This document shows, piece after piece, positions 10,003 to 16,681 of a stretch of DNA of 28,841 nt; positions within the stretch are counted from its first letter, which is position 1, and each line of letters opens with the position of its first letter. Both the position numbers and the translations under genes were made by a program. Source of the stretch: Campylobacterota bacterium (lineage in GTDB: Bacteria > Campylobacterota > Campylobacteria > Campylobacterales > Sulfurovaceae); assembly GCA_034722955.1 (NCBI GenBank), contig JAYEOM010000137.1:1-28841 (forward strand). Direction: 5' to 3'. Under the pieces are notes generated by a model. It saw only the letters and a program-made list of their open reading frames with translations, was not told where the DNA came from and searched no databases.

Positions 10003-10839
10003 CTAAAATACTATCGTTTTATTGCCATTGACAAAAACACGGTCATTTAGTACAAGAGAGAGTGCTCTAGCCAAAACTATCTTCTCCACATCCTGCCCTG
10101 CTCTCTGCATATCCCTCCACTCTAGGCGGTGGTTGACAGGTATGACATCTTGTGATATGATCGGACCCTCGTCTAGGTCTGTTGTAACATAGTGTGCTGT
10201 AGCCCCTATGATCTTGACACCTCTGGCATGAGCCTGCTTGTATGGATTGGCTCCGATAAATGCCGGTAGAAAAGAGTGGTGTATATTGATGATCTGTTCA
10301 GGATATTGATGGACAAAATCTGCACTTAGAATCCTCATATATTTAGCCAAAACTATATAATCAAACTCTAACCCTCTAAGCACATCAAGTATATCCTCTT
10401 CATGCTCTTCTCTCTCCAGATCATCAGATGGTATATAGATAAAAGGTATATCAAAACGACGAGTCAAATCTCTGAGATTATCACGGTTGGAGATCACTGC
10501 TTCGATATCTGCTTCAAGTTCACCAGCTACCCAACGAATCAAAATATCACCTAGACAGTGTGACTCCTTTGTTGCCATCAAAACTATTTTTTTTGGTTGT
10601 GGCTCAATCACTCTGATATGTGCATCGTCCGGAGCTATCGATAGAAGCTCTTGATATAGTTCATCTGCATCAAACAGACCACTCACAACACTACGCATAA
10701 AAAACTTATCTCTCTCTTTATCCACAAACTCACGGTTATTGTCTATATTTAGACCACGATCATAAAAGACCTTGCTAAAATGATAAACCAAACCCATAGC
10801 ATCTCTACAATCGATCAATACACGCGCTCTTTTTACCAT
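10003..10839 (-). CDS. purU: Formyltetrahydrofolate deformylase
   Basis: N-terminal ACT domain, KESHCLGD, LAKYMRIL, INIHHSFLPAFIGANPY, GATAHYVT. Confidence 0.96.
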   Translation of the reverse strand: MVKRARVLIDCRDAMGLVYHFSKVFYDRGLNIDNNREFVDKERDKFFMRSVVSGLFDADELYQELLSIAPDDAHIRVIEPQPKKIVLMATKESHCLGDILIRWVAGELEADIEAVISNRDNLRDLTRRFDIPFIYIPSDDLEREEHEEDILDVLRGLEFDYIVLAKYMRILSADFVHQYPEQIINIHHSFLPAFIGANPYKQAHARGVKIIGATAHYVTTDLDEGPIISQDVIPVNHRLEWRDMQRAGQDVEKIVLARALSLVLNDRVFVNGNKTIVF

Positions 10840-10866
10840 TGATTATCCAACTTTGCTTTTTTTGAC

Positions 10867-10875
10867 ATTATACCA
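10867..10875 (-). promoter_or_regulatory. Extended -10 promoter (TGGTATAAT) for purU-trmL
   Basis: Perfect TGnTATAAT on the minus strand about 27 nt upstream of the purU ATG. Confidence 0.65.
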
Positions 10876-10892
10876 AATACCGATTTAAGTCT

Positions 10893-11150
10893 CTATTTAG
10901 CTCTCTCTTCTGCTCTTTGTGACATACCGCTCTGGAGAGGTTTTTTTGGGGTTTGAGCTGCAGGTTTAGTTGATAAAAATCCACCCGGAGGTCCCTCTGG
11001 TCCCCCAGTGTTATCAGCCATAGCACTTATAGGTTTCGATAACTGTCCCAGTGTCATCAATACTGGTGCAGAGTAGGCTAGTTTTTTGATGAAAATACGC
11101 CGTGAGAGGGTAGGATCCACTCTGCTATGCTTATTGTTACTATTTTTCAT
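10893..11150 (-). CDS. 85-aa peptide with twin-arginine signal and lasso-leader-like motif
   Basis: SRRIFIKK, YSAPVLMTLG, AMA|D putative cleavage site and a Gly/Pro-rich tail. AGGA RBS; overlaps the upstream gene by 11 nt. Confidence 0.8.
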   Translation of the reverse strand: MKNSNNKHSRVDPTLSRRIFIKKLAYSAPVLMTLGQLSKPISAMADNTGGPEGPPGGFLSTKPAAQTPKKPLQSGMSQRAEERAK

Positions 11151-12381
11151 TACTATAGTCCTGCTCTATCATAGGTGGTCTGCTTAGGTCAAATAACCCT
11201 GCACTCTTTGACTTCATTATCTTTGCATCTTTCTGAAGTGCTCTTGCCTGAAGCGTAGACAATCTGCTCACTGTTTCTGATACGGTTACCTGAGTTGTCT
11301 GAACTACCCACTCAAAGTCACGCTCTTTTTGACCACTCATATTGAAAGTATAAATCTGCACCTTACCGTTAACTAGAGCAGGAATCTCTACTCCATTGCT
11401 GGAGTCTACCAACTTCATCTGCTTTATAAGTGGGTTGGTTGTGGATTGATATTCACTATATCGTGTGCGATTCTGCTGATCTACATATGGACTCAAGAGA
11501 TATATCCCACGCCAAGTTAAAAGAATAGTGGCACTACTATCATCTGTCTTTACCGTAAATCTCCAACGATCTTCCGATCTTGGACTGTAAGAGTGGAAAT
11601 TTACTTTATAGTTCCCAGCCGCAACTCCATCGGGATTGACAAAAATGATATCTATATAACTTCCGCCAAAGGGATCGAGTGCTTTGAGTGTATATCTGCT
11701 AACGACATCATCTCCCTCCAGCTCTCCCAACTGTGTACTCTCTGTTTTCATTCCTCTAGCAGGGTTCTCTGCAATAAGTCTGATATACCAGTTTGATGGC
11801 TTAGGCTCTGGTGTTGGGGAGTATGGTCTATCTGAGGGCTCAGAAGGATCTGGTCCCAATCCATACTTGAAGAGTGCCTCAGCTACACTATAAGGATCTG
11901 CTGTGATACCACTCATGATATCCCTAGCATCATCTATGTCATTCATGCCTGCGTTGGCAAAAGCCAAACCTACTATGGTTTTATTATCCAAGATAACTGC
12001 ATCATCTCCCAATGCACCATTGATAACTGCCAAGATAAATATATCCCTAGAGATTGAGCCAGAGTCAAGCTCTGTCAACCAATATGCGACTCCAGCCTTA
12101 TCGCCTGAACGGTTAAATAGATTTCGGTATACCGCCTCTATGAACCTCTCATTACTATAATCTTCCGGATATAGTGCCTTAGTCTCCTTCTGGTCGAAAA
12201 AGCTCTGAGCGATCTCCTCTAGTGTAAGCTTGGAGTCATTGAGCCAATACTCTAGACCATCTGCATCAGGTGCACGATCAAAAGTAGCGATATATAGTTT
12301 GACGACACTCTCTCTCTCGGGAGTTGTTGCATATAGAGAGAGAGTAAAAAATAGTATCAATATCATAAGTTTTTTTAACAT
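11140..12381 (-). CDS. Exported DUF4214 (S-layer anchor-like) domain protein with Pro-rich linker and uncharacterised C-terminal domain
   Basis: Sec signal (..SLYA|T). VVKLYIATFDRAPDADGLEYW...FIEAVYRNLFNR..D.AGVAYW is typical of DUF4214/RsaA N-terminus. PDPSEPSDRPYSPTPEPKP linker. AAGGAG RBS. Confidence 0.8.
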   Translation of the reverse strand: MLKKLMILILFFTLSLYATTPERESVVKLYIATFDRAPDADGLEYWLNDSKLTLEEIAQSFFDQKETKALYPEDYSNERFIEAVYRNLFNRSGDKAGVAYWLTELDSGSISRDIFILAVINGALGDDAVILDNKTIVGLAFANAGMNDIDDARDIMSGITADPYSVAEALFKYGLGPDPSEPSDRPYSPTPEPKPSNWYIRLIAENPARGMKTESTQLGELEGDDVVSRYTLKALDPFGGSYIDIIFVNPDGVAAGNYKVNFHSYSPRSEDRWRFTVKTDDSSATILLTWRGIYLLSPYVDQQNRTRYSEYQSTTNPLIKQMKLVDSSNGVEIPALVNGKVQIYTFNMSGQKERDFEWVVQTTQVTVSETVSRLSTLQARALQKDAKIMKSKSAGLFDLSRPPMIEQDYSNEK

Positions 12382-12391
12382 CTTAACTCCT

Positions 12392-14284
12392 TTACTCTTG
12401 AGGTATCAACAGTTTGACTGTTCTGTTTTTTGTAGGACCATGTAGTTCGACCCAAAATCCTTTGAAGGGTACCAGCTTGCACTCACCCGGAGTAACATCA
12501 TCACAGGTGATATAGGAGTTACTCTTGTCTGTTCCTGTACCGTTGTAGAGCCATATCTGTTTGCTGGCATACCCTGCTGCATCAGCAGCACTGGGAGTGT
12601 AAGCTACTCCATCTATGAGAAATCTGCAATCAGACCAGTTGACAGGCACCCTCACCCCTATAAAGCCACTCATATTATAACGATATGGTCCTGTACCATC
12701 ATCAAAATCATTTGTAACAGATCTCAAATCTATCTCAACACAAGCATCAGCAGTACAGGCACCGCTTGTCGAATCATAATCAACAGTCGATGCACCACTT
12801 ACATACCACTCGCTATAGAGTTTGCTTCCTAGCCAATAGCCCTGTCCAAACTCAAGAGGATCACTTAATCCCAGTGATAGATAACTGCTGCTGTTGTCAG
12901 TAGAGCTATATGTTCGCTTATAGACTACCCAGTCTGTACCGATACTCCCACTCATATCATCACCAAATATATCATCAACTGTCAACGGCGTAGTCCGACT
13001 ATCTGCCGGGATGCCTACTAGATCCCAACTATCTGCAGTGATAGATGATCCGTCACACGCTCTGCACTCTCTTGAGGTTCCATCATAGTTGAGACCACTA
13101 TTTTCATTGTTATAGATAGTACTTATTTCACTTGAACTCAAAGCACGATGCCAAATCTTTACCTCATCTATATTTCCCTCCCATCGATCATCTATAGAGC
13201 TTCCTGCGATATCATCTCCTATTGAGACAGCGAGTGCTCCAGGTGAATAGCTACTCTGTGCTTGGATATCGACAAGTACTCCATTTTTGTAGATACGAAT
13301 TGTATTTCCATTATAAGTTCCTACGATATGAGTCCATGTACGACTTGAGAGTGATGCTCTTGCATAAGTACCAAAATGTCCAACAAAAAAATCGATATTT
13401 GATTTTGACTTCTCTTTGTGCACAAGTCCCCATCCATCACTCCAGCTATCATCACTAGATTTAATAACTGCTGCCATCCACTTGTTGCTATTGTGTCGAT
13501 AGAGCCATGCAGAGACACTAAATGGCTCACCGCTTCCTATATCAACTTCTGCTGCTGTACTGTTGGGATAGTAGACAGCATCACTCTTGTTGGGATCACT
13601 ATAAGTGTTTACAAAGTTACCTGCACGACAAATCTTATATATGGATGGTATATTGTTAGCTTTATTGCGAGATTGTGCATCTAGACCATTGCCTGAGCTA
13701 TCTTTGACATCATCTGTCATACCATTGGCACCACCCAGCCAATAACACTCATCCATCCGAAAGTCAACTTGCAAATCACTCCCTATAGGTGGTGGAGGTG
13801 AGCCATAGATATGCAGTATAGCATAGTTAAAATTCCCTTTATCTTTAGCAGTATCATCACAAATTTCAAGTCTCCAAGAACCATATCCATCTTCAGTGTC
13901 AAATAGACTTAGTGGTGATTCCGGTCTACGCTCTACCATAGCTGTATGAGCACTCGTATCATCCACTATAGATATAGCTGCAGAGTCATTGAACTCTACA
14001 TATAGATTATCTGCACTTCCGCCATTGTCACTAGTCAAATCAACAGAGGCACCCTCTGGAGAGTAGAGAGTAACATCTAAGTCAGCTCTATATGGATGAG
14101 TGATATTTACCTCTATTATAATATCTGTCACGATACTCGATGATGTCATCTCAAATATCTTATCAATACACTTCTTATCTTTTATTTCTTCAGAATCATC
14201 ATTTAATATTGTTGTTACACCTGCAACTATCTGTAGAGTAAAAATATAGATTATGAAACCTATGCCAATGATAAATCTACCCAT
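12392..14284 (-). CDS. Exported protein: proprotein-convertase P-domain + LamG-like jellyroll + uncharacterised Cys/Trp-containing C-terminal domain
   Basis: Signal peptide; ITHPYRADLDVTLYSPEG...GSWRLEICD (P-domain); FSVSAW...WTHIVGTYNG..IRIYKNG...GNIDEVKIWHRALS (LamG_3). AAGGAG RBS. Confidence 0.8.
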   Translation of the reverse strand: MGRFIIGIGFIIYIFTLQIVAGVTTILNDDSEEIKDKKCIDKIFEMTSSSIVTDIIIEVNITHPYRADLDVTLYSPEGASVDLTSDNGGSADNLYVEFNDSAAISIVDDTSAHTAMVERRPESPLSLFDTEDGYGSWRLEICDDTAKDKGNFNYAILHIYGSPPPPIGSDLQVDFRMDECYWLGGANGMTDDVKDSSGNGLDAQSRNKANNIPSIYKICRAGNFVNTYSDPNKSDAVYYPNSTAAEVDIGSGEPFSVSAWLYRHNSNKWMAAVIKSSDDSWSDGWGLVHKEKSKSNIDFFVGHFGTYARASLSSRTWTHIVGTYNGNTIRIYKNGVLVDIQAQSSYSPGALAVSIGDDIAGSSIDDRWEGNIDEVKIWHRALSSSEISTIYNNENSGLNYDGTSRECRACDGSSITADSWDLVGIPADSRTTPLTVDDIFGDDMSGSIGTDWVVYKRTYSSTDNSSSYLSLGLSDPLEFGQGYWLGSKLYSEWYVSGASTVDYDSTSGACTADACVEIDLRSVTNDFDDGTGPYRYNMSGFIGVRVPVNWSDCRFLIDGVAYTPSAADAAGYASKQIWLYNGTGTDKSNSYITCDDVTPGECKLVPFKGFWVELHGPTKNRTVKLLIPQE

Positions 14285-14428: not shown

Positions 14429-16681
14429 ATGAACGGGACTAAAGACAACAGCAGTGAGATGGACTTCAAAGAGATCATCTCTGTCCTATCAAAATATAAA
14501 GCAATGATCATCTCTATAGCTATTTTATTTATCATTTTATCTGCTATTTTTGCCTATCTAAGACCAAGTATTTACCAATCAAGCACCCTGCTGAAAATTG
14601 ACCCTAGAGGCAGCAACTATCAGCAATATGATCTTATGTCAGTCTCCATGGGGTATGGTGGCAATATTTTGGATGATGAGATTGTTATTTTGCAGACCAA
14701 AGAGACTGCCAATAGAGCACTCAAATACCTTGATCTAGGAACTAGATACTTTGTCAATAAAAACTTCAAAACTTATGAACTATACAAGGATTCCCCTTTT
14801 GTGGTCACCTACGAGAGGATGGATCCTATGCTTGAGGGGAGACTTTTTGAGTTATCTCCTTTAGATGATGAGAGATTTAGACTTAAAATTAAACTGCCCA
14901 ATAGAGAGTATGATCAGATACACTACTACTCAAAAGAGATAGAGACTCCTAGATTTACACTAAATATAGAAAAAATCTATCCTTTGAGCGACAGAGAGTA
15001 TACCTTCTCCATAGAGCCAAACGAGACAATGGGTGGTATGATCTTAAGTGGTTTGTCAGCCTCTGCTTATACAAAATCAGGAAATATCATACAGCTAAAT
15101 TTTAGAGATCAAGTTCCACTGCGTGCCAAAGATATACTCGATGCTATCGCTAAAGCATATGTCGATAGTCGCCTTGAACTCAAATCTGAGGGGGCTAAAA
15201 GAAAGCTATATTTTATAGATTTACAACTCAAAAAAATCAACAAAACTCTACAAGGCTCTTCTGATAAACTGCAAGATTACAAAGTGACCAATACAGTAGT
15301 AAACTTAGACAATAAAGTACTATTGACAAGTACCAAGATCAGTGCACTAGAGAGTAGAATGTATGAGATCGATATGCATGGTGACCTCCTGAATAACATC
15401 CTTATGCATATCAAAAGCAACAGAGATATAAAGGGTATCAATATGGGTTCTATGCAAAACTTGAGCCCTGTTATAACAGGGCTTGTCAATCAAATCCAAA
15501 CAGCTACATCACAACTCGATACTCTCTCTGTCAACTATACCAAAGCTCATCCTGATGCAATAAAGATAAGAAAACGCTTAACATCACTCAAGAGCTCTCT
15601 AGAGGATGCTATCAACAACTCTATACGCATCCTTGAGAAGCGTAAACTGCTACTTGGTGAAGTGATAGCAGAGCAGGAAGAGAGACTCAAAAGCCTGCCC
15701 GAACAGGAGCAGGAGCTAGAGAAGCTAACACGCAACTTTATCGTAAATGAGAAGATATACTCTATGCTTCTTGAGGAGAGAGCAGAGACCTCTATCATAG
15801 AGTCATCAGCTGTCTCTGACACTAGAGTTATAAATAGTGCTTATATACCAAGCATCGCCTCAACACCAAAAAGAAAACTGATAGTAGCCATAGGATTTGT
15901 ACTAGGATTGATATTGGGTATTGCATTGGCTTTCTTGAGGTACATTCTGGATACAACTATCACTACTATAGAGGATATAGAGAGTCTCACAACTATCCCA
16001 ATCTATGGTGCCATTCCGCATATAAACTCCAAACAGAGTGTCGCCAACTATAAAGAGTCGATGCGTGCTATATGGATAAATTTAGAATTTTCAAATATAA
16101 ATAAGGGTTCTATGCTGTTAACATTTACCTCCTCTGTTGCCGGAGAGGGTAAAAGCATGGCTATTTCACAGCTAGGTAAGACTATCTCTAGGAGTCACAA
16201 ATCTGCTATTATTATCGACCTAGATATGAGAAAAGCAACACTGCACAAGGTATTTGGACTATCCAATGATATCGGAGCTAGCACACTGCTCTCTGGACAA
16301 GATAGTCTCAATGATGTAGTACAAGATAGTTTATATGATCAACTCCAAGTCATTACCAGTGGACCAAAACCACCTAACCCTACAGAGCTAATCATGGCAG
16401 GCAAACTTGATCTCATCATCAAAGAGCTCAAAAAGGAGTATGACTATATACTCTTGGACTCCCCTCCTGTAGGGCTTGTAGCTGATGCCTTAAAGATTAT
16501 GCATATGTCAGATATCACAATATTTATGATAAAGTCCAACTTCTCAAAAAAAGAGTTCATTAAAAATATCAACAGTTTTATAGAACATGAAGATATAAAT
16601 ATAGGTATTATTGTCAATGATCTAGAGGAAAATAGGTATTATGGGTATGGGTACGGATATGGAGGGTATGGAGATTATTGA
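14429..16681 (+). CDS. wzc: Polysaccharide co-polymerase / BY tyrosine autokinase (Wzc/GumC family)
   Basis: Wzz-type N-terminus with TM, coiled periplasmic region, second TM, Walker A SSVAGEGKS, A' IIIDLDMRK, Walker B ILLDSPP, C-terminal Tyr cluster RYYGYGYGYGGYGDY. Confidence 0.93.
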   Translation: MNGTKDNSSEMDFKEIISVLSKYKAMIISIAILFIILSAIFAYLRPSIYQSSTLLKIDPRGSNYQQYDLMSVSMGYGGNILDDEIVILQTKETANRALKYLDLGTRYFVNKNFKTYELYKDSPFVVTYERMDPMLEGRLFELSPLDDERFRLKIKLPNREYDQIHYYSKEIETPRFTLNIEKIYPLSDREYTFSIEPNETMGGMILSGLSASAYTKSGNIIQLNFRDQVPLRAKDILDAIAKAYVDSRLELKSEGAKRKLYFIDLQLKKINKTLQGSSDKLQDYKVTNTVVNLDNKVLLTSTKISALESRMYEIDMHGDLLNNILMHIKSNRDIKGINMGSMQNLSPVITGLVNQIQTATSQLDTLSVNYTKAHPDAIKIRKRLTSLKSSLEDAINNSIRILEKRKLLLGEVIAEQEERLKSLPEQEQELEKLTRNFIVNEKIYSMLLEERAETSIIESSAVSDTRVINSAYIPSIASTPKRKLIVAIGFVLGLILGIALAFLRYILDTTITTIEDIESLTTIPIYGAIPHINSKQSVANYKESMRAIWINLEFSNINKGSMLLTFTSSVAGEGKSMAISQLGKTISRSHKSAIIIDLDMRKATLHKVFGLSNDIGASTLLSGQDSLNDVVQDSLYDQLQVITSGPKPPNPTELIMAGKLDLIIKELKKEYDYILLDSPPVGLVADALKIMHMSDITIFMIKSNFSKKEFIKNINSFIEHEDINIGIIVNDLEENRYYGYGYGYGGYGDY

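Follow-up and report, generated by a model that had tools for sequence, protein, structure and literature searches.

An 85-aa peptide with a combined twin-arginine and lasso-type leader as candidate precursor of a linear, Tat-exported phosphopeptide in Campylobacterota

The last gene of a three-gene operon in a 28,841-nt stretch of DNA from a Campylobacterota bacterium (GenBank assembly GCA_034722955.1, contig JAYEOM010000137.1; the whole stretch is called the window) was found to encode an 85-aa peptide, P0001, in which a twin-arginine signal and a lasso-type leader motif share one N-terminal segment. We propose with moderate confidence that P0001 is the precursor of a linear, lasso-related phosphopeptide RiPP exported by Tat. 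For the peptide family as a whole, a mechanism in which the peptide is presented by an RRE, modified by a kinase and exported by Tat is considered likely; that the P0001 copy is still processed in its own genome is held with slightly less confidence than the assignment of P0001. Relatives of P0001 are accompanied by a kinase, a nucleotidyltransferase and an RRE chaperone; decoration in the cell, followed by export, is therefore probable for the peptides of this family. The following features were assigned in the window:

10893..11150, minus strand: precursor peptide gene P0001, 85 aa, last gene of the three-gene operon
11082..11105, minus strand: twin-arginine motif S16-K23, with R17 and R18 invariant in the family alignment
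11046..11075, minus strand: putative lasso-type RRE-binding motif Y26-x-x-P29-x-L31...G35, within the hydrophobic region of the signal
11016..11036, minus strand: c-region K39-P40-I41...A43-x-A45 with predicted signal peptidase I site
10896..11015, minus strand: predicted mature peptide D46-K85, 40 aa, Pro/Gly-rich
11007-11009, minus strand: Thr48, mature position 3, candidate phosphorylation site
11140..12381, minus strand: secreted partner, 413 aa, with DUF4214 domains, a conserved beta-rich C-terminal domain and an F-D-L-x-x-P-P tail
12392..14284, minus strand: secreted surface protein, 630 aa, with P_proprotein, Laminin_G_3 and a conserved beta-rich C-terminal domain
14429..16681, plus strand: Wzc-like polysaccharide chain-length regulator/tyrosine kinase, divergent from the P0001 operon

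The operon, in which the 630-aa protein and the 413-aa protein precede P0001, is set among housekeeping genes. The P0001 ORF has AGGA 8 nt 5′ of its ATG and overlaps the upstream gene by 11 nt. In nine out of nine comparisons with homologues pN/pS (uncorrected, 37 codons) was 0.28–0.50, which argues that P0001 is a real coding gene; judged from these substitutions, the segment is under purifying selection. A promoter and terminator scan of positions 10700–11400 detected one promoter-like site, downstream of the P0001 ORF and before purU, and no terminator-like sites.

The motifs that a sequence-only reading of this DNA had pointed out were all present in the translated ORF: S16-R17-R18-I19-F20-I21-K22-K23 as twin-arginine motif, Y26-x-x-P29-x-L31-x-x-x-G35 as lasso-leader motif, and A43-M44-A45 before D46 as cleavage site, leaving 40 residues (D46-K85). 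The joint Tat and YxxPxLxxxG pattern matched only P0001 among 50,612 six-frame stretches of the genome, in which the Tat pattern alone gave six matches and YxxPxLxxxG alone 12. That reading had also found the canonical GxxxxxT to be missing, and the lasso Thr(-2) position, which in lassos is rarely taken by Ile or Val instead, is indeed Ile41 in P0001, though the same position (Y+15) is Thr in 123 of 251 homologues. The signal of P0001 has the three parts of a Tat signal: the twin-arginine motif comes first, a stretch of moderate hydrophobicity follows (Kyte-Doolittle mean 1.05 for 15 residues; 1.39 for the family), and K/R-P stands before AxA. No Pfam or NCBIfam model matched P0001, nor did the Tat-signal model TIGR01409; no paralogue was found in its own genome, and the nearest clusters in a protein atlas were unnamed hypothetical proteins.

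A search with a profile of eight sequences (E ≤ 0.001) gave a family of 395 clusters at 50% identity, with lengths of 52–120 aa in 148 of 150 clusters among the matches listed; named homologues belonged to Sulfurovum and Nitratifractor. Weak phylum-wide matches in frames of 440–630 aa were ordinary Tat enzymes and were dropped from the family. Of 152 stored family proteins, 146 were placed in the alignment and two long ones were dropped, while the four unplaced proteins also show the motif. In a 132-member alignment R17, R18, and P29 were invariant and F20, K22, K23, Y26, G35, P40, and A45 were conserved in at least 90% (consensus RRxFLKKAxYxAPxLIxLGxLxKPxxAxA), and both motifs were kept among members less than 50% identical; as the family sets were picked by a motif-bearing profile or filter (RR, F, KK, and [YW]xxP for the set of 251 homologues), conservation at those positions is circular, and only that at other positions is not. 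Pro at Y+14 was present in 242 and Ala at Y+19 in 235 of the 251 homologues. A scan with the pattern RxFLKKAAY, in which the Pro is not demanded, gave 31 loci; nine Sulfurovum-type loci were already in the family set, and among the 22 examined Pro was found at Y+3 in 21, the exception being an 867-aa protein. Two Tat-signal models of the NCBIfam scan matched 40 (TIGR01409) and 21 of the 132 members at E ≤ 0.1, all weakly, and the TIGR01409 cut-off (16.7) was exceeded by one distant family member (17.6). In a check against lasso-leader models, as had been proposed earlier, the lasso-precursor model NF033528 weakly matched nine of 132 members at E ≤ 0.1, and P0001 itself was unmatched.

The family leader was shown to align ungapped and in register with eight canonical lasso-type precursors from the P0001 genome and from related ones (hhalign probability 71%, score 27.1; none of 60 column shuffles came above 14.1), with Y26, P29, and L31 of P0001 at the lasso −17, −14, and −12 positions. 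The best solved-structure relative of the family RRE was the lasso protein TbiB1 (E 2.7e-19). Modelling of the RRE with the peptide, also proposed earlier, placed the leader above its controls (0.48 compared to 0.00 for the best of three), a result that was graded weak and may be due to likeness, since a similar complex has already been solved. Runs agreed in at least 92% of contacts with a partner pLDDT of at least 55; the mark was reached by 116 of 157 solved pairs and two of 215 mismatched pairs in the benchmark, with only 18 of the solved pairs, plus both mismatches, at ≤0.60.

The tail of the family peptides is hypervariable and Gly- and Pro-rich, with a median of 17 aa in the 251 homologues compared to 40 aa in P0001, and mostly ends in P, F, W, or G, not in Ser. 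Ser or Thr occurred in mature positions 1–3 in 167 of 251 homologues (shuffled mean 99, maximum 121 in 500 shuffles), and all eight gammaproteobacterial and Vicinamibacteria members have Ser at Y+19, the register of Ser3 targeted by BsfK. Together these two observations make Thr48 a candidate site in P0001, where it lies at Y+22 and not at Y+18/19.

No cyclase, B2 peptidase, or PqqD gene is present in the window, as noted before, and the window contains neither a kinase, nor an NTP_transf_5 gene, nor a SipW-like peptidase or MsbA-like exporter. The genome search suggested in the sequence-only reading recovered the enzymes elsewhere in the assembly (G000, 140 contigs), together with a TatC gene:

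G000 C124:25746-26018: stand-alone lasso-B1-type RRE/PqqD, lone, apart from the lasso cluster
G000 C39:14667-16950: ABC and B2 genes (B2: NF033537, 93.6 bits, cut-off 33)
G000 C19:3578-3769 (L024:675-866): canonical lasso precursor with Gly1, Asp8 and C-terminal Ser; Asn-synthase-like cyclase on the same contig
G000 C38:826-3631: two HprK-like kinases behind the lasso cyclase; C38 joins C19 by a 127-nt overlap
G000 C27, EPS locus: NTP_transf_5 gene

The EPS locus also holds a second copy of the Wzc-like gene, 35% identical to that of the window. With an RRE in the genome and Y, P, and G conserved in the family, an ordinary h-region in a genome devoid of RRE proteins, the outcome that would have spoken against the motif, was not what was found. 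The lasso cluster appears complete (coordinates include C19:3777 onward) and also contains a Peptidase_C25 protein and a thioredoxin-fold gene. Two short ORFs between the lasso cyclase and the kinases (C38:261-780) resemble a toxin-antitoxin pair by eye.

Both kinases of this genome keep the BsfK spacing of His, Lys-Ser, and Asp-Asp, with Ala replacing the first Gly, and no third kinase was found in the genome at E ≤ 0.01. In kinase trees (quick IQ-TREE and FastTree, with long-branch warnings) they grouped with lasso-cluster kinases, outside the clade (support 99–100) of the family's peptide-adjacent kinases. With both kinases located in a lasso cluster elsewhere in the assembly, the P0001 copy may be served in trans or may be orphaned. 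Orphaning, which we regard as rather improbable, would mean that P0001 is a long-tail copy whose cognate kinase is gone and which either leaves the cell without modification or has been retained only as a small accessory for the two surface proteins. It is in line with the lack of a kinase of the peptide-adjacent clade in this genome, with the position outside that clade of the kinases found in two other long-tail carriers (G473 and G457), and with the length of the P0001 tail compared to the family median. On the other hand, Y26, P29, L31, and G35 are intact in a segment under purifying selection, one of the two kinases grouped with the peptide-adjacent Arcobacteraceae kinases (support 91), the lasso cluster has two kinases for the one precursor found, and the assembly is split over many contigs. 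By FastTree the peptide-adjacent kinases of Arcobacteraceae and Sulfurimonadaceae grouped with one of the two lasso kinase clades (support 88–91), which speaks against an absolute split.

The gene neighbourhoods of 51 peptide copies in 48 loci, many on contigs that end early, were compared. A kinase was located within 5 kb of 36 copies, PqqD within 6 kb of 17, Wzc near nine, a cyclase near four and B2 within 8 kb of three. Long-tail copies had a kinase within 5 kb in four of nine cases compared to 32 of 42 short-tail copies, and Wzc was found within 4 kb of six of the nine. Besides, a profile search covered 21 distant loci from Sulfurimonadaceae, Arcobacteraceae, Thermodesulfobacteriota, Gammaproteobacteria, and one Vicinamibacteria, one of the 21 being a short contig labelled Paenisporosarcina. 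Kinase genes were found in 18 of these loci, PqqD in 15, NTP_transf_5 in 12, and Wzc in 11, and neither B2 nor a cyclase in any. Likewise, among 88 Pfam-scanned proteins from 16 of the distant loci there was no B2, cyclase, SipW-like peptidase, or MsbA-like exporter, while glycosyltransferases, a flippase, Wzy-type genes, and export genes were detected. In Arcobacteraceae, Sulfurimonadaceae, and Gammaproteobacteria the peptide, kinase, PqqD, and nucleotidyltransferase form a cassette within polysaccharide loci, in which no cyclase or leader peptidase was found.

A direct comparison between leader types was possible for two cassettes with the same surface proteins. The peptide of G401 (L114:8916-9095) combines a leader of the lasso type with Gly1, Asp8, and the tail end PSDPGGW, and its cassette adjoins cyclase, B2, and ABC genes; the peptide of G032 (L015:9900-10076) has a Tat-type leader and a tail ending PPSDPSGW, and the kinases of both cassettes are sisters (support 99–100). 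This shows that either leader type can take the other's place on a single cassette; the direction does not follow from the comparison. Two cyclase-like genes, together with precursors of both the YxxP and the WxxP type, were seen in several lasso clusters (L113, L115, L119, L126, and L127), in some cases beside a subtilase gene.

The neighbourhoods also bear on the possibility that the leader is an ordinary Tat signal in front of a short passenger of structural function. The YxxP would then merely belong to the hydrophobic region, and the RRE, kinase, and nucleotidyltransferase would act on another target of the polysaccharide locus. Small peptides with Tat signals have a precedent in model TIGR02811; the peptide adjoins a surface-protein or partner gene in 42 of 51 copies compared to a kinase in 26, and the tails of peptide and partner co-vary in the presence of an FGxPP-like motif (2×2 table: 5, 3, 1, 27). 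We nevertheless consider this reading improbable, as [YW]xxP was absent from all 14 ordinary Tat signals compared (mostly homologues of one another), the lasso register of the family extends to the frequent Thr at Y+15, and the peptide stays beside kinase and PqqD in distant phyla, where the surface-protein pair was present in only two of the 21 loci.

It had also been suggested that the peptide is a signal donor; it would bind a folded partner that has no signal, either a neighbour or the RRE itself, and take this partner along through Tat. Tat cargo is usually folded, the passenger is tiny, and an RRE is a small folded binder without a signal of its own. This claim found no support and is even less probable than the previous one: both neighbours (413 and 630 aa) have N-terminal signals of their own, hydrophobic or of lipoprotein type (by eye), the tail is hypervariable, and RRE binding would be expected to cover the hydrophobic region needed by Tat.

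Co-occurrence was analysed in 131 family genomes with a completeness of 90% or more, of which 29 were carriers (weak long-frame matches dropped) and 102 were non-carriers; carrier genomes are kin, and the counts are thus not independent trials. The HprK-like kinase was present in all 29 carriers compared to 18 of 102 non-carriers, the lasso-type RRE/PqqD in 28 compared to 34, and the B2 peptidase in 12 compared to 18. The difference persisted within genus g4 (kinase in 21 of 21 carriers and 16 of 40 non-carriers; PqqD in 21 of 21 and 22 of 40). The peptide was carried by 17 of 19 kinase genomes without B2, and B2 is present in 16 of the 18 genomes that have the kinase and lack the peptide; taken with the 29 carriers, the kinase accompanies either a lasso or a Tat-type peptide in 45 of 47 genomes. 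The peptide-less kinase genomes that were looked at have canonical lasso clusters at the same ribA-rsmG site. In related genomes, one chromosomal site holds lasso or Tat-type precursors with near-identical RREs; derivation of one type from the other thereby becomes testable.

It is very improbable that P0001 is itself a true lasso precursor, with B2 cleaving after S42 and the C19 cyclase closing the ring in trans, and this reading was rejected: a B2 well above its cut-off and an Asn-synthase-like cyclase are in the genome, and Ile(-2) is accepted in BsfA (PMC10368454), but core positions 7–9 are G49-G50-P51 without a ring Asp/Glu (found there in only 57 of 251 homologues), B2 and cyclase do not travel with the peptide, the closed genome G032 has three peptide copies and three kinases with no B2 match, and the C19 cyclase has its own canonical precursor.

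The mechanism proposed for P0001 as a linear precursor would give one N-terminal segment two jobs, RRE docking and Tat signalling. In the cytoplasm, the C124 RRE would bind Y26-x-x-P29-x-L31 and the following strand, as the motif, the presence of the RRE and the weak complex model suggest. The RRE would then present the peptide to an HprK-like kinase, and a Ser or Thr just past the leader would be phosphorylated by analogy with BsfK and LppK, most likely Thr48 in P0001. The target of BsfK is an internal Ser located 19 residues beyond the leader Tyr; the kinase accepts Thr and is strongly stimulated by its RRE, and phosphorylation survived mutation of Y, P, and L in the leader (PMC10368454). 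LppK polyphosphorylates Ser3 (Tyr+18) on a linear peptide, which is cut by a signal-peptidase homologue, and did not accept Thr (PMC13381572). The phosphate may then be extended by an NTP_transf_5 enzyme, which would add a sugar or nucleotide, as a nucleotidyltransferase adds hexose to phosphate in pseudomycoidin (PMC8498205). On release by the RRE, the twin-arginine motif would engage Tat, and signal peptidase I would cut after A45, replacing a dedicated leader peptidase and ABC exporter; going by its neighbourhood, the product probably has its role on the cell surface, together with the polysaccharide and the surface proteins encoded alongside it.

Tat exports post-translationally, leaving time for modification, and chaperones can mask Tat signals. 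In the genome of P0001 all enzymes would act in trans, and a point against the mechanism is that the lasso and P0001 would have to share the single C124 RRE. LPP and paeninodin use separate RREs (PMC13381572). Thus, the earlier view of P0001 as an EPS-linked RiPP-like precursor, modified in trans and exported, is supported for the family by conservation, neighbourhood, and co-occurrence, while it is less sure for the P0001 copy, for which the kinases lie in a lasso cluster and outside the peptide-flanking clade.

Among known systems, the LPP system of Bacillota (LppA/B/K/S/N/D; Popov et al., 2026, PMC13381572) shares several traits with the family: a linear precursor in which a variable tail follows a conserved YxxP leader; an RRE as a discrete protein, a kinase resembling HprK, and an NTP transferase without cyclase, which in the genome of P0001 are present on other contigs; and signal-peptidase-type cleavage (predicted for the P0001 family) and capsule loci, often beside lasso clusters. 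The phosphorylated Ser or polyphosphorylated Ser just after the LPP leader has a possible counterpart in the positional enrichment of Ser/Thr seen in the family sequences. LPP differs in having a dedicated SipW-like peptidase and MsbA-like exporter (PMC13381572), neither of which was found among the scanned neighbours of the P0001 family, in its leader YxxPxVLxHQxIxFETxxS (PMC13381572), a consensus that the full Tat signal of the family does not follow, and in being described as Bacillota-restricted (PMC13381572), whereas the family has hosts in Campylobacterota, Gammaproteobacteria, and others. The terms “twin-arginine,” “Tat,” and “signal peptide” occur zero times in the main text of that paper (PMC13381572).

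The phosphorylated lassos (BsfK/BsfB1 of bsf, PMC10368454; the paeninodin kinase; pseudomycoidin, PMC8498205) share the YxxPxL register, a B1-type RRE, NTP_transf_5, and an HprK-like kinase with the same H...K-S...DD spacing, which in BsfK targets an internal Ser at Y+19 (PMC10368454). Unlike these, the family has no ring acceptor, no dependence on B2 and cyclase, and no C-terminal Ser, and it has a Tat signal in place of ABC export. As neither the LPP leader consensus nor the lasso ring and B2 link apply, the P0001 family works like LPP and the phosphorylated lassos and is a member of neither. The HPr-rel-A system (kinase TIGR04352, PqqD TIGR04353) is likewise a cassette of kinase, PqqD, and nucleotidyltransferase with function unassigned. 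TIGR04352 was the best NCBIfam match of most family kinases (best 84.6 compared to the cut-off of 200 bits, for kinases from genomes other than G000); the TIGR04353 cut-off was passed by one of seven PqqDs, the G000 PqqD had no listed match to it, and NCBIfam contains no precursor model that the family peptides pass. With Tat signals (TIGR01409) and small Tat targets (TIGR02811) the family shares the twin-arginine motif, moderate hydrophobicity, a basic residue before AxA, and a very short passenger; it differs from plain Tat signals by the invariant YxxP...G inside the signal and the linkage to RiPP tailoring genes.

No description of a hybrid Tat-signal/RRE precursor was found in a literature search largely without subscription papers. 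The family provides a candidate substrate for the kinase/RRE/nucleotidyltransferase cassette that recurs in polysaccharide loci of several phyla with its product unassigned, and the reading of P0001 predicts a testable residue. If correct, linear phosphopeptide RiPPs would extend beyond Bacillota, and one leader would serve both enzyme recruitment and Tat export. Only tentatively, and with clearly less confidence, we suggest that the family is a RiPP class that is widespread and so far undescribed, and that its Tat signal would have arisen from a lasso leader: the RRE might act as an export-proofreading chaperone until the peptide is phosphorylated and glycosylated or nucleotidylated, a housekeeping signal peptidase might remove the leader, the exported phosphoglycopeptide might prime or tether surface polysaccharide or the surface-protein pair, and lasso- and Tat-type leaders might be swapped on the same cassette, as in G401 and G032.

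In some Sulfurimonadaceae loci (L165:7983-9129, L158, L170, and L173) two or three peptide genes stand in tandem; their leaders are the same, while their tails are unrelated. The genes for the surface protein and its partner were nearly always paired, with N-terminal passengers varying between LamG, P-domain, H-lectin, and FG-GAP. Models of the beta-rich domains of the pair in the window (11143-11808 and 12395-13099) had pLDDT values of 90 and 88; fold searches gave best Z values of 5.2 and 5.4, and Foldseek returned nothing at E ≤ 0.001. The C-terminal tail of partner proteins is F-D-L-x-x-P-P or F-G-L-P-P, and that of small neighbours of 127–139 aa is K-F-G-E-P-P (window 11140-11200; L015:10298-10717; L114:12770-13153). 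Peptides with FGxPP tend to adjoin partners with FGLPP, and these tails may represent a shared binding motif or shared descent.
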